In this document: positions 1,566 through 29,043 of the stretch, one piece after another
Layout of the letters: the number at the start of each line of letters is the position of its first letter
Numbering within the stretch: position 1 is the first letter of the stretch
Assembly (NCBI GenBank): GCA_964016885.1
Contig: OZ024740.1
Location: 116,374,001 to 116,438,000, forward strand
Direction: 5' to 3'
Origin: Eledone cirrhosa
Taxonomy: Eukaryota
Length of the DNA stretch: 64,000 nt
Made by a program: the position numbers and the translations under genes
Notes under the pieces: model-generated
Told to the model about the DNA's origin: nothing
What the model saw: only the letters and a program-made list of their open reading frames with translations
Databases searched by the model: none

Positions 1566-1758
1566 AACAAAGGAAATGTGGTAAGGAACTAGATGGACCA
1601 TAACGCACCAGAGTACTCAATACTTAGGGTAGTAGAGTGGGAAATAGGAAAAAGTATGACCCCGACGGCAGAGCTCAAGCCGTTTCGACGGCTATTTCTG
1701 GACTGAAATAGCCGTCGAAACGGCTTGAGATCTGCCGTCGGGGTCATACTTTTTCCTA
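1566..1758. mobile_element. Hairpin element, family H (half-hammerhead palindrome), in (TA)n; copy 1
   Basis: Inverted repeat 1645-1758 centred near 1701. Each arm reads GCCGTC-GAAACGGC...GCCGTC-GGGGTC. Homologous to 5054, 22583 and 28861. Confidence 0.85.
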
Positions 1759-2199
1759 TATATATATATATATATATATATATATATATATATATACACA
1801 TGCGTATGCTGTGTATGTGTATATGTGTGTATGTAAGAAAATCAAACGCATAAATGTCTTCAGTCCAGTCGATTTTGCTAACCTCATTGGCAATATAAAA
1901 TGTGTGTATAGGGAGTATTTATATGTGTATATATATATATATATATATATGTGTGTGTGTGTGTGTGTGTGTGTATGTATATATATATATATATATATAT
2001 GTGTGTGTGTGTGTATATATATATGTATATATGTATGTATATATATGTATATGTATGTATATATATGTATGTATATATATATATATATATATGTATGTAT
2101 ATATATGTATGTATATATATGTATGTATATATGTGTGTCTGTGTCTGAGTCTCTGTGTGTCTGTGTGTGTGTGTCTGTGTGTGTGCGTGTGAGTGTGTG

Positions 2200-3025
2200 T
2201 ACATATACATACATTTGGTATCCAAATCTTGTAGGGACTTCATTTGTAGTAATTATTCCTAAATATTTGTTCTTAAGACTCTTACTATTCGAATTACATA
2301 CTTCTGATGTCAGCAACTGCTTTATCGGTTTAGGTTAGATCTGCAGACTTTAATTGACACCGAAACATCTAGATATCTTGTGTGGAAACCCTTGTTATGT
2401 TTTACGTAATACCTTTGATGTCTATACTTCGTGTTTGTTTAATTCAAATAGATATAAAGTCGTAACACCGAGTACATTTTTTGGTTGTTCTACTCAATAC
2501 ATTTGTGTAGTGAAATTATTATTGTTGCATAGGAAATGTCGATTTCTGAGAGTGGTATGAATGCTCAGACTGTGAAACTTTGAAAACATATAAGTTGTAT
2601 TTATACGGAAGGAATTTAACTGGATGGAAAGGAAGTGTGTGCATTGCATCGTGCCTTTGTAAAGTTTTCTTGTTTAGTGTATAGTGGTTAGAGGTGTTAT
2701 TGTTTCAGAGTTGTGTTGGTGTTTAAAGTGGGTTTCTTGTTTAGTATGGAGGTGAGTGGATAATCAGTATATGTAAGTGTTAGCGGCAAGTTGTTTGAAG
2801 TTGTTTGAAGGGTTTCTGTGTCTGAAAAAGGAATTAGTCAGGTTTTCAGGTTATGGAAGGTATGATAAAGATGCAGAAAGAACAGAATTTAGAAACACCT
2901 TTGTATGACCTTATGCTTGTGAGGGGCATTTGAATCTTAACTGTCCATATATGATTAGAAAGTATAGCTTCTGATATTGTAGGGTTTCTGAATGAGTGTG
3001 AGAGCTACGTGAAGCTATTTGAACA
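2200..3025 (-). pseudogene. Decayed Penelope-like element, GIY-YIG C-terminal region and probable 3' UTR
   Basis: Minus-strand translation near 2870-3020 gives SFRNPTISEAILSNHIWTVK and SIRSYKGVSKFCSFC, matching the PLE pattern SFR..T.LS.HIW.LK...Y....K.C.LC. Boundaries approximate. Confidence 0.7.
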
Positions 3026-3106
3026 TCTCTCTCTCTCTCTCTCTCTCTATATATATATATATATATATATATATATATATATATATATATATATATATAT
3101 GTATAT

Positions 3107-3293
3107 ATTAGAAAGTACCGAGAAATAACCGAGGTGTCCTACACGAGTGAAAGTATGAAGAAAAAAAGATGAAATCGAAAATGTAACTGGAGTCTTATTT
3201 TTTTTTAAATATATATATTTATTTGGTTCCTTTACCGGTTTCGCAGTTCTTCTGCTTTTCAAAAGTAGAGTTGAGATGGAGGGTCTGTGGTTT
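3107..3293 (-). mobile_element. Small HHR-bearing element, family U (U3-A8 core), in (TA)n
   Basis: Minus strand 3228-3267: CTT-TTGAAAA-GCAG aagaa CTGC-GAAA-CCGGT-A-AAG. Near-identical to 39347-39665. Confidence 0.7.
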
Positions 3294-3595
3294 ATATATA
3301 TATATATATTTATGTCTCTCTCTCTCTCTCTCTCTCTCTCTCTCTCTCTCTCTCTCTCTCTCTCTCTCTCTCTCTCTCTCTCTCTCTCACACACACACAA
3401 ACCGATAGACAGACAGAATTATAGATATAATATTTTTTTTTATCAGAAATGTCTGAAACTGCTGATTATACCTATCTGAAAAGTTCCAGATATTTACATA
3501 ACCAATAATATCACACTTAAGAGATCAAATATATTATTTCGTTGCCGTCATTGGTGGTGATTCCTTCTGAATATCCTCCATATTATATATAATTT

Positions 3596-3750
3596 GTTAC
3601 AACAGTGACATATATAGGTGCTTAAGTTTCGTTTGGTTATACAGCCCAACTCATTCAGCCTGTTATAAAAAGAAGAAATAGGATGAATGAGTTTGGGTGT
3701 ATAGCATATAACCCAACGAAACTGCTCTGTTGAAACGGCTCCGACTCTTT
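3596..3750. ncRNA. Divergent pair of degenerate HHR-like motifs with an 8-nt core (CTGAATGA)
   Basis: Minus ~3616-3662: AGG-CTGAATGA-GTTGG..CCAAAC-GAAA-CTTAAGC-A-CCT. Plus 3683-3725: ATGAATGA-GTTTGGG..CCCAAC-GAAAC. Relative at 19671-19720. Confidence 0.5.
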
Positions 3751-25876: not shown

Positions 25877-26238
25877 TGAAGGTAAAGTGATGGTTTATAC
25901 TTTAAACTGAGGGTAAGTGATGGTTTATACTTTAAACTGAGGGTAAGTGATGGTTTATACTTTAAACTGAAGGTAAAGTGATGGTTTGTACGTTAAACTG
26001 AAGGTAGAGTGATGATTTGTACGTTAAACTGAAGGTAGAGTGATGGTTTGTACTTTAAACTGAAGGTAGTGATGGTTTGTACTTTAAACTGAAGGTAAAG
26101 TGGTGGTTTGTACTTTAAACTAAAGGTAGAGTGGTGGTTTGTACTTTAAACTGAAGGTAAAGTGGTGGTTTGTACTTTAAACTAAAGGTAGAGTGGTGGT
26201 TTGTACTTTAAACTGAAGGTAAAGTGGTGGTTTGTATT
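25877..26238. repeat. Minisatellite, 29-31-bp unit CTGAAGGTARAGTGRTGGTTTRTACTTTAAA, ~12 copies
   Basis: Directly visible tandem units. Confidence 0.9.
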
Positions 26239-26754
26239 TTTATCTTCGTCCTCGTTTGCTCTGTCTATAACAAAACAACTGAAAAAAAAATCATAAAATT
26301 TCGAAATGTAAAAATTATTTTTTCTTTTCTTTTTCATTGTCAAAGCAGATAACAATCCCGTAAATTACAGTAGTAGTAGTAGTAGTAGTAGTAGTAGTAG
26401 TAGTAGTAGTAGTAGTAGTAGTAGTAGTAGTAGTAGACATGTGAGCAAAAGTGTTCCAGCCTTGACCAACCAATCGTTTTTAAAACAGTGTCTGTCAGGC
26501 TACATTCAACAATGACTTCACCAATGCCATTTTTTAACGGTAGGGAATACCATTCTACTGCTGCTTGGTCAAGAAGGGAAGGCCAGGACCTGAACCTTTT
26601 AAGGGTCTCGGAAACTAGTGAAAGAAAGGGAGAAAATTATACTCAAACCGGAGACCTGGCCCAAATGCTTGCAATTAAGTGGACCACTACTACTAAAGGT
26701 ACCCAAATGTCATGTGGACATGTTAAATCGTGTTACGGGTTAAGGCTACCATCC

Positions 26755-27970
26755 AAGTAAGGCACAGCGGAATTTGAACTCGGCATGTAAAAAAAACGAA
26801 AGTAATACTGCAAGGCGTCTTATTCGACGCTCCAATAATTTCCCATTCCACAGCCCTAGATTGGTATTCGATTTTATCGACCCCGAAAAGATAAAAACAA
26901 AGGTAACCGTGACAGGATTTGAACTCAGATCGCAAATCATGTTTACTTCGCGCTCTAATAATTCTACGAATTCGCCGCCTGCAGTGATTGAAGGGAAATT
27001 TGGCTGCCATTTCTTGCATGTCGAACGATTAAATAATTCCTCCTGTGTTAGTTCGACTGCATGTATAGTTACATACGGAGCCGCCGAGAGGATTGGGGAT
27101 GGGTAATTATAACTGTAGATATTGTAGGTCCAATTAATTAGTGGTTGTTTAACTTGTTAAGGGGGAGAAAAATTTTAAAAAAGGAGCCGATCATCATAAC
27201 GGACAGGATAAAATGCCTCCATTAATCTATCTATTAATATTATCTGCCAGTCGCAATTCCAAGCAAAAAGAGGCGGTATTTGAACACAAAATGGGCGGAG
27301 CCGGATCAGATAACACAAAGCATTACATCCACCTCTTTAACAATTCTGTCAATCCACCGCCTTTGGATTGGTACTTTATTTATCGACCCCTAGAGGATGA
27401 AAGGCAAAGTTGACCCCAGCGAGATTTGAACTTAGAGCGCAGTAAACCAGAACAAACACCGAGGCATTTAAATCATCGCCTAAATTACTGCTAACTTGCT
27501 ATCCATGAATTATTTAAAGCAATTAGTGTAACCAGTAAAGCTGTGATATATTCCACCAACAAAGCTTAATTGAAAAACAAACAGAACATGCGATGATGCT
27601 ATGTTTACTTCTCGCAAACTTTAATTTACATCCATTCATCCATTGGCACTTAACTAATGATAGAGTCGTAGGGGCACCGTGACATACGATGTGTCTTGGA
27701 CATTTTTTAACCTGGCGGAGCCTATTCCTCTCCATGTCTAAACACAGGCGAATTATTTCAGAGAGAGAGAGAGAAAGAGAGAGAGGGAGAGAGGGAGAGA
27801 GGGAGAGAGAGAGAGAGAGAGAGAGAGAGGGGGATGTGCTGGGAATTGTCATCGCTACTTAACTGGCACTTTATTTATCGACCTCGAAAGGATGAAAGGA
27901 TGAAATGTGCATTTGAACTCACCGCAGAGAGAACCAGTACGAATAGAATAAAGCTTTCTATTCAGCATTA
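26755..27970 (-). mobile_element. Several degenerate SINE A copies
   Basis: Recurrent TATCGACCCC..GGATGAAAGGCAAAG..TTTGAACTCAG motifs. Confidence 0.65.
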
Positions 27971-28570
27971 TAACGATTCATATTCAACAATTTTACATGT
28001 GTGTTGTGTGTTTGTGTGAGTGTCACTTCCGTCGACGAGAGTTCCAGTTGTTTGAACACCAGAACAGACTACTCGTAAAATTAATTTATAGGTGACTGAG
28101 CATACACTTAACACACGTACACGTAACATAGTTCTCAGGGAGATTGAGAGTAACACAGTGTGAATAACAGGTACAACTTATATTTACCGGCTAAATGAAC
28201 TGGAGTAACATGAAATAAAGTGTGTTGCTCAAGGATACGACACACGGCCGTCAATCGAATACATAACCTTACGACTATTACATGAACACGTTAACAACTA
28301 GGCCACCAACCTTCAGACAACTTTACGTCCATCTAATCTATTCATCTCTTCAATTATTATCGCCTGACGGCATTCGTTCCAATCTCTACCCGGCAAACAA
28401 TTTAATTAAATTCTAGTCATGAGTAAGCAATACTCACCATATCAACTACGTTAAATGTATCTAGAATAACCTATATATGCTTATACAAAAGCTTATGTGA
28501 AGTTAGGACGTTTCACTTTGCATGTGGTTCCAGCTACGATCGCGCAGCGTCAGTCTTTGGACATTATATA

Positions 28571-28776
28571 TAGTTATGTAATAAACAACATAAGATAATT
28601 ATTTCATTTACCAGTGGTTTCTTGAAGACAGATATTTATGTCTGTCTTCATTCATCAGAAGAAAATTTATTTATAAATAAATGTTCTTCTGATGAATGAA
28701 GACAGACATAAATATCTGTCTTCAAGAAACCACTGGTAAATGAAATAATTATCTTATGTTGTTTATTACATAACTA
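28571..28776. repeat. ~206-bp near-perfect palindrome with a hammerhead on each arm
   Basis: 103-bp arms with one mismatch and no spacer. Plus 28684-28744: TTCTT-CTGATGA-A-TGAAGACAGA..TCTGTCTTCA-A-GAAA-CCACTGGT-A-AATGAA. Confidence 0.85.
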
Positions 28777-28860
28777 AAAAGCTCTGTAGCCTACATAGAG
28801 CACTCTCTTTTCCTTTACGCTTCCTACGGAAATACTTCATATATATATATATATATATAT

Positions 28861-29043
28861 AAAGAGGTTGTGGTAAGATATCAGGTGGACCATAACGCAC
28901 CAGAGTACGAGATACTTGGAGTAGTAGAGCTGGTAATAAGAAAAGATTCAGGACCCCTACGGCTGAGCTCCGGCCGTTTCGACAGCTGGATCTAGCTGTC
29001 GAAACGGCCGGAGCTCTGCCGTCGGGGTCCTGAATCTTTTCAC
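28861..29043. mobile_element. Hairpin element family H, copy 4 (diverged subfamily)
   Basis: GAGCTCCGGCCGTTTCGACAGCTGG-AT-CTAGCTGTCGAAACGGCCGGAGCTC with the same long arm. Confidence 0.85.

Follow-up and report, generated by a model that had tools for sequence, protein, structure and literature searches.

Half-hammerhead palindromes in the Eledone cirrhosa genome derive from a Penelope-like retrotransposon and may be formed by two-ended priming of reverse transcription

A stretch of 64,000 nucleotides from the Eledone cirrhosa genome (contig OZ024740.1, positions 116,374,001 to 116,438,000; this whole stretch is called the window) contains four palindromes of about 185–190 bp whose arms hold the 3′ half of a hammerhead ribozyme. 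The arms correspond to the 3′ end, the pseudo-long terminal repeat (pLTR), of a Penelope-like element (PLE), and the two arms of one palindrome end at two different sites, A and B. We consider that the palindromes are probably miniature insertions, formed by break-primed reverse transcription at A and B on the 5′ leader of the Penelope RNA; the probability of this reading is roughly 0.6. The first-pass annotation of the same DNA had offered two other explanations, namely cDNA that snaps back on the stem II hairpin of the ribozyme, and a fixed core-less hairpin that propagates alone. Neither agrees with the results described below.

The same annotation had proposed a search for a parent with a full ribozyme core, joined to the open reading frame (ORF) of a PLE, and such a parent was found. 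Among the 30 best matches to the long arm several extend further in the 5′ direction, and the match at locus L010 continues into a GIY-YIG frame. In a search with this frame, the arm was located in the sense orientation about 740 bp downstream of the GIY-YIG ORF in 29 of 30 loci. The parent is arranged as pLTR, 5′ untranslated region (UTR), reverse transcriptase (RT)/GIY-YIG ORF and pLTR, and the unit is about 3.1 kb. The tandem junction pLTR–tail–5′ UTR–ORF is visible in L161 and L162, where the ATG of the ORF lies about 232 nt after position +1 (defined below, in loop II of the ribozyme). The pLTRs occur in partial tandem or inverted form with an optional tail (L161, L162 and L165–L169; A and B ends).

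The parent ORF encodes the RT motifs QFDI..Y, MG..DS and YRDD together with a C-terminal VIY...YIG, as expected for a single-ORF endonuclease-positive (EN+) PLE. The Atlas neighbours of the protein (0.95–0.98) are RT/GIY-YIG clusters, some of whose members have RVT_1, HTH_animal and GIY-YIG. A Pfam scan of the parent protein gave 0 families, and a PDB search with it gave nothing significant. The Hydra clade of PLEs is defined by RWK and DKT, a CxCX5C linker, no CCHH between GIY and YIG, CxxC/CxH around E and N, and a (TA)n target (PMC8557442). The parent protein has LRWR, SDKT and the linker CNCPDRSTC (CxCx5C). Its endonuclease reads NVIY..C..AYIG with a single Cys, and CNLC..E and N..CKH flank E and N; RWR is present where the definition has RWK. 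Placed by motifs alone, the parent is a Penelope-like retrotransposon with Hydra-clade protein motifs. The Neptune and Nematis clades (CX2-5CxxC linker, CCHH zinc finger) were rejected, because the linker is CxCx5C and no CxxC is present between GIY and YIG.

The parent ribozyme reads CCCC-UUGANAA-GUU-stem II (9 bp, loop of about 33 nt)-UC-GAAA-stem III (5 bp)-GUC-GGGGU, and the stem III loop contains GAGCUC. An intact core therefore exists as anticipated, but it is not the anticipated CUGANGA; it is UUGANAA, in which U3-A8 is a known variant of PLE hammerheads (PMC4209133). Stem II pairs 2, 7 and 8 of the nine change on both sides between subfamilies A and B. The reading of the arms as the 3′ half of a type I hammerhead is thus right, since the hammerhead of the parent is type I with a U3-A8 core, and compensatory changes between subfamilies preserve three pairs of stem II. 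For L162, the fold constrained to the hammerhead has a predicted energy of −33.2 kcal/mol, compared with −33.5 kcal/mol for the minimum free energy fold. Arms still carrying the core number 6,811 genome-wide (control, 1). A canonical CTGANGA parent was rejected: the 55 matches have varied spacers, none is listed with the stem II 5′ strand of the parent, and they look junction-made. In the window, no CTGANGA...GAAA match falls inside any of the four palindromes. The claimed lack of CUGANGA was correct, because the core is UUGANAA and sits upstream of the putative transcription start described below.

According to the core types of 63 parent motifs, U3-A8 occurs in 54, C3-A8 in four, U3-G8 in three, other types in two, and C3-G8 in none. 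One parent sub-lineage (L074, L075 and L215) has a C3-A8 mismatch in the core, yet it has spread; 20 of the first 100 core-bearing matches listed are C3-A8 (counted by eye). The C3-A8 ribozymes may be inactive, and the predicted self-cleavage may be dispensable for transposition because this lineage spread. In the PAc/Poseidon_Ac system the hammerhead is dispensable for insertion (PMC11167929).

Both arms of a palindrome read as cDNA outward from the flanking (TA)n. The outer end of an arm is either site A (+59) or site B (+139), and B lies 80 nt beyond A. ATT is the next sequence after both sites in the parent; in the insertions it is ATAT. We analysed 122 short pairs drawn from two sources, the first 21 Mb of C1 and best-hit searches. 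The pairs comprise 116 AB, five with one arm unclassifiable, and one AA. The lone AA pair is spurious and corresponds to a local palindrome inside a long copy. The long inverted pairs, a small sample, are A+B in 10 of 10. In vitro, an Anolis PLE cuts ATT, two adjacent internal RT start sites bound the tail, both strands are cut and extended, and a dimer is predicted (PMC11167929).

The family is large. In the 3.0 Gb of the genome searched, 14,141 short palindromes were detected by exact 11-mers that occur in both arms and are separated by no more than 34 nt; the reversed-pattern control gave 0. Exact 24-mer arm matches amount to 46,063 (control, 0). Short-read contigs from other runs contain the arms too, which excludes a long-read artefact as the origin of the family. 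In contigs of two further organisms (runs X5 and X6) the arm was found together with the upstream loop II sequence; therefore, the family is not confined to one species.

The copy number, the fixed outer ends and the (TA)n targets are what a hairpin of the miniature inverted-repeat transposable element (MITE), Helentron or retrozyme type would give if it propagated as a unit. This explanation is largely refuted and deserves very little credence. Among 116 pairs, 107 distinct junction strings were found. The arms overlap at the junction by 0–6 nt in 76 of the 122 short pairs, short inserts are present in 45, and one is miscalled at 13. The differences per 29 nt are almost as frequent from arm to arm as from copy to copy (1.21 versus 1.27 in subfamily A, 2.16 versus 2.62 in B, and 0.84 versus 1.20 in C). 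Of the non-consensus bases in subfamily A, one is shared between the arms of a copy and 60 are unshared. These results indicate that each copy came straight from a master. The terminal 20-mers match at 5–9 of 20 bases and the repeat stops 80 nt short of one end, so terminal inverted repeats of the MITE type are absent. Both palindrome ends lie within the microsatellite, where a target-site duplication was looked for. Among contigs from four short-read sets none spans a whole copy, and no empty site is among them. A DNA transposon, a Helentron and a MITE were rejected on account of the direct continuity of arms with PLE ORFs, the distinct junctions and the unmatched termini. A non-LTR retrozyme was also rejected, since it requires head-to-tail units with a complete type I hammerhead and the arms here are head to head without the core.

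The two arms of a copy are nevertheless related by haplotype. The fine haplotype is concordant between arms in 48 of 53 informative pairs (mean after shuffling, 11; 69 pairs are uninformative), and the five mismatched pairs differ by one base each. Such concordance, together with the A+B asymmetry, would also follow from self-priming, in which a B-primed cDNA or an antisense RNA forms a fold-back close to its 3′ end and copying then extends to site A; self-priming of antisense RNA was proposed for rotifer Penelopes (PMC3846280). Self-priming requires the tailed B arm to reach further into the element. However, of 116 pairs, the arm with the greater reach is A in 49 and B in 47, and in 20 the two arms are equal. 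In a set sampled by position, the A arm reaches further in 18 and the B arm in 15 of 38 pairs. The snap-back on stem II predicted earlier, with one arm through all of loop II and the partner from +8, is the natural self-primed product, and it was detected in 0 of 122 short pairs. Moreover, the tail-less A arm carries the ORF in L041/L010 and L044, which shows that the tailed arm was not copied from the tail-less arm; under self-priming, the ORF-bearing A arms with short B arms (L041 and L044) need a later deletion. The same holds for L138, L139, L174, L186 and L188, where a complete A arm adjoins a B arm that stops within the tail, and many joints of this kind are found also in short-read contigs. 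We regard self-priming as rather improbable.

The inner ends were analysed with 118 arms along C1, namely the listed 24-mer matches with enough flank and a fit to the anchor pattern. Between +17 and −19, 113 of them end, and five are long. The stopping rate per base is 0.01–0.07 from +17 to +6 and 0.08–0.38 from +5 to −6, with a peak at +2/+1. Position +1 is the A of an initiator-like YYA(+1)GT in loop II. YYAGTY at +1 is conserved between subfamilies even though the rest of their loop II cannot be aligned. TATTTAT is present at −31 to −25 in subfamily A, and TATTTAA is present at a similar place in most of subfamily C. No match resembling a downstream promoter element was seen by eye at +28 to +32. 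Transcripts of Drosophila virilis Penelope start within the upstream pLTR (PMC2377424), and an initiator-like word was noted in rotifer pLTRs (PMC3846280). Genome-wide, 5,438 of 12,053 subfamily A arms that are exact to +1 (45%) leave the template there; the following base is C in 2,962, G or T in 2,476 and A in 6,615. Of 45 sampled arms that end at +1, 26 are followed by C, compared with 9 of 68 at +2/−1 (Fisher p 9e-7). At gapped junctions the added base is C in nine, G in three, T in two and ambiguous in three. The excess of C fits the copying of a cap. A splice acceptor or branch point at TTTAG was rejected, because the arms include A+1 and G+2, no constant upstream exon is present, and CTAAT is not conserved in subfamilies B and C.

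In place of a run-off, the RT might stall in an extended stem II, or the RNA might be cut there, with two-ended priming at A and B on a longer template. We judge this unlikely, although the boundary is a zone, as stalling would give; in subfamily A, +1 is located in a predicted upper helix of stem II, the ends stop near the apical loop, and the self-complementary words AATT, ACTAGT and AGATCT would focus joining. Few arms end at the base of stem II (+17/+16, 8 of 118), and in subfamily B the upper helix is not conserved while TTAGT is. Independent stalling predicts short partners for long arms. Of the partners of 14 long arms, 10 are themselves long and none has its inner end in the zone from +5 to −6 (one of the 14 is the spurious L094), whereas 149 of 244 short-pair arms end in this zone. 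The pairing of long arms with long partners fits two template classes rather than independent stalling.

Taken with the A+B rule, these features are consistent with the following scheme of two-ended run-off. The GIY-YIG endonuclease would break (TA)n, cutting both strands, and the two break ends would prime reverse transcription, one at A and the other at B. One ribonucleoprotein, and probably in most cases one RNA, would serve both start sites. The template would be a capped transcript that starts inside the hammerhead, in loop II. Both cDNAs would run off the 5′ end of this transcript, and host end-joining would fuse the trimmed cDNAs head to head, resulting in a hairpin of half-ribozymes. 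Priming at the downstream pLTR of a tandem transcript would produce the ordinary long inverted copies with the whole ribozyme and the ORF. The start site, the cap, the double-strand cut and the joining pathway are putative steps. The first cDNA product would resemble retroviral strong-stop DNA, which is cDNA running off a capped 5′ end. A broader proposal, for which we see even odds, is that PLE integration is obligately two-ended and that strong-stop run-offs account for the majority of events; the half-ribozyme hairpins, tens of thousands in number, would then each record a capped start. Most events would be of this kind because, under the same two-ended view, the only complete priming site of an ordinary master is the 5′ leader.

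Several observations weigh against the run-off scheme. The boundary is not one base: 21 of 118 arms run to −1 to −6 and three to −10 to −19, and of the first 50 junctions in which both arms are complete, about half go on into templated AAAT. Several transcription starts are thus needed. The location of +1 within the predicted upper helix in subfamily A leaves a structural stop as a candidate, and subfamily B is without a TATA-like box. Microhomology confounds the excess of C, and in the genome as a whole G follows almost as often as C (about 88% of the 2,476, from the first 100 listed). The transcription start and the cap at +1 are deduced from the sequence. A single RNA does not seem to be always used, since the arms of L191 (C1 near 13301034) represent two recurrent haplotypes that differ at three bases, likely a two-template insertion. 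Finally, if palindromes collapsed after insertion, the record of which arm had been the longer one could be blurred.

Such collapse could even be the origin of the family, if long inverted insertions shrank after integration by deletion at the palindrome centre. Long palindromes are unstable, microhomology is present at the junctions, and intermediate lengths exist (L004, L005, L015 and L023). This explanation leaves unexplained the common +2/+1 boundary in three subfamilies with different upstream sequence, the 45% of arms leaving the template at one base and the excess of C, and we find it very improbable.

The palindromes share many features with EN+ PLEs, in which an inverted 5′-truncated copy, a one-sided tail, a junction palindrome, microsatellite targets and partial tandems are described (PMC3846280; PMC8557442; PMC2377424). 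In contrast to the elements described there, about 95% of the sampled arms (113/118) have their inner ends near a single site, the inserted DNA measures only about 190 bp, the tail has 80 nt instead of 30–40, and A is paired with B in every classifiable case. The likeness to Hydra-clade PLEs, including Hydra-1_Obim, extends to RW(R), DKT, the CxCx5C linker, no GIY-YIG CxxC, CxxC/CxH flanking E/N, (TA)n insertion and a sense hammerhead at the 3′ end (Craig et al., 2021, PMC8557442). The five hammerheads seen in supplement S2 of that paper have CUGANGA cores, whereas the core here is U3-A8; the hammerhead sequence differs from that of octopus Hydra-1_oBim (PMC8557442), and the parent has a 9-bp stem II with a long loop and the unit of about 3.1 kb given above. 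U3-A8 covariation, a long helix II, G10.1-C11.1 and a palindromic loop III word (GAGCUC here) are found also in Schistosoma mansoni Cercyon U3-A8 hammerheads and the dual opposite-strand minimal hammerhead ribozymes (Cervera & de la Peña, 2014, PMC4209133). Compared with these, stem III here is a full 5 bp, and most genomic copies hold only the 3′ half.

PAc/Poseidon_Ac has two internal RT starts bounding the tail, the ATT cut motif, and both strands cut and extended, as proposed here (Frangieh et al., 2024, PMC11167929). It belongs to a different clade and shows no strand difference, and in the available part of that paper the pairing of one start per strand and run-off miniatures are not described. 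Non-LTR retrozymes are likewise non-coding, PLE-derived and hammerhead-related (bioRxiv 10.64898/2026.07.22.740005); as described there they are head-to-tail tandems with complete ribozymes, whereas the palindromes here are head-to-head halves without the core. Both arms here copy the same 5′ leader. L1 twin priming also uses two primers at one target break, but these copy parts of the RNA that do not overlap.

Published work already covers inverted pLTRs with a tail, palindromes at the junction, U3-A8 cores and the Hydra clade. In a literature search that left subscription papers and Repbase mostly outside, we found no account of strict A+B pairing, coupled arm lengths or an initiator-like boundary; with several supplements outside its scope, it also gave no miniature A+B palindromes and no run-off at a pLTR start. 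The main text of PMC13282606 mentions neither palindromes nor hammerheads. The formation of PLE inverted repeats and of the one-sided tail is called unresolved in three papers (PMC8557442; PMC11167929; PMC3846280). The present family offers more than 14,000 natural products of integration, in which the A+B rule is strict, the arm lengths are coupled and the inner boundary is sharp. These features speak for two-ended priming on sense RNA rather than for the antisense self-priming proposed in the literature. Two-ended priming, if true, would explain inverted pLTRs, the one-sided tail and junction palindromes from a sense template without self-priming, and its predictions are testable in the existing in vitro PLE system. 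A start inside the ribozyme, if true, would spare the message of the element from cleavage by its 5′ copy. Repeat pipelines likely file such hairpins as MITEs or SINEs (short interspersed nuclear elements).

The four window copies lie where the first-pass annotation had placed them, are separate, and are flanked by (TA)n, (GA)n or (CA)n. The asymmetry it described held (long arms of about 131–139 nt, short arms of about 53–57 nt), as did the subfamily changes common to both arms: GACGGC/CTTGAG in copies 1 and 3, GACAGC/CTTGAG in copy 2 and GACAGC/CCGGAG in copy 4. The symmetry centre is 15.5, 13, 15.5 and 10.5 nt 5′ of GAAAC in copies 1 to 4, near the claimed 10–15 nt; "always" did not survive, because the centre is not fixed, and in the 122 short pairs the arm ends range from +17 to about −25 with the peak at +2/+1. 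The arms are complementary over 52, 22, 46 and 48 bp, respectively; the 22 bp of copy 2, which has an 8-nt deletion, represent the core only.

In copy 1 the B arm (1566–1704, minus strand) is pLTR +1 to +139, inverted, and includes the 80-nt tail (1566–1645). The A arm (1705–1757, plus strand) is pLTR +7 to +59, followed by (AT)n; it consists of the stem II 3′ strand, GAAA (1717–1720), stem III, GUC (1737–1739) and the stem I 3′ strand. The tailed B arm of copy 2 (5054–5180, minus strand) has its deletion in stem III and its inner end near +7, and the A arm (5180–5238, plus strand) starts near +5. Copy 3 (22584–22771) is oriented opposite to the other copies: its A arm (22584–22638, minus strand) reaches +1, an untemplated CT follows (22639–22640), and the B arm (22641–22771, plus strand) spans +9 to +139, where the tail ends CCTTTGTT, then (AT)n. 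Copy 4 (subfamily B; L101) has a B arm at 28861–28993 (minus strand) with the inner end at about +6 and a 6-nt overlap with the A arm, which runs from about +6 at 28988–29041 (plus strand). For an Rfam scan of the window, the 150 listed of 242 matches include no relevant one at the four copies; those listed are only microsatellite-driven miRNA matches and a weak HH9 match at 56001–56071.

This HH9 match (31.8 bits, below the gathering threshold) has a retrozyme-type core, and an imperfect palindrome of 335 bp is located just upstream of it (55545–55879). A tandem array of about 482-bp units occupies 59392–64000, each unit with a canonical type I hammerhead (CTGATGA...GAAACTAGTA, palindromic stem III). 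The array flips orientation at about 60704–60796 and looks like a non-LTR retrozyme array; a diverged single relative is found at 30563–30916. A near-perfect palindrome at 28571–28776 has 103-bp arms with a hammerhead-like core (CTGATGA...GAAACCACTGG) and its centre 5′ of the core. It is probably the inverted product of another PLE family, and its GAAACCA-TGG resembles the Hydra-1_oBim motif (PMC8557442, supplement S2). Short repeats with minimal hammerhead cores (CTGANGA-stem-GAAA) that end in (TA)n, at 6249, 6962, 13507, 29277, 53690 and 55131, probably represent 3′ ends from additional PLE families. Other PLEs have left decayed RT/GIY-YIG fragments, 29–45% identical to the parent protein, at 34559–35290 and 12798–13094 (minus strand).

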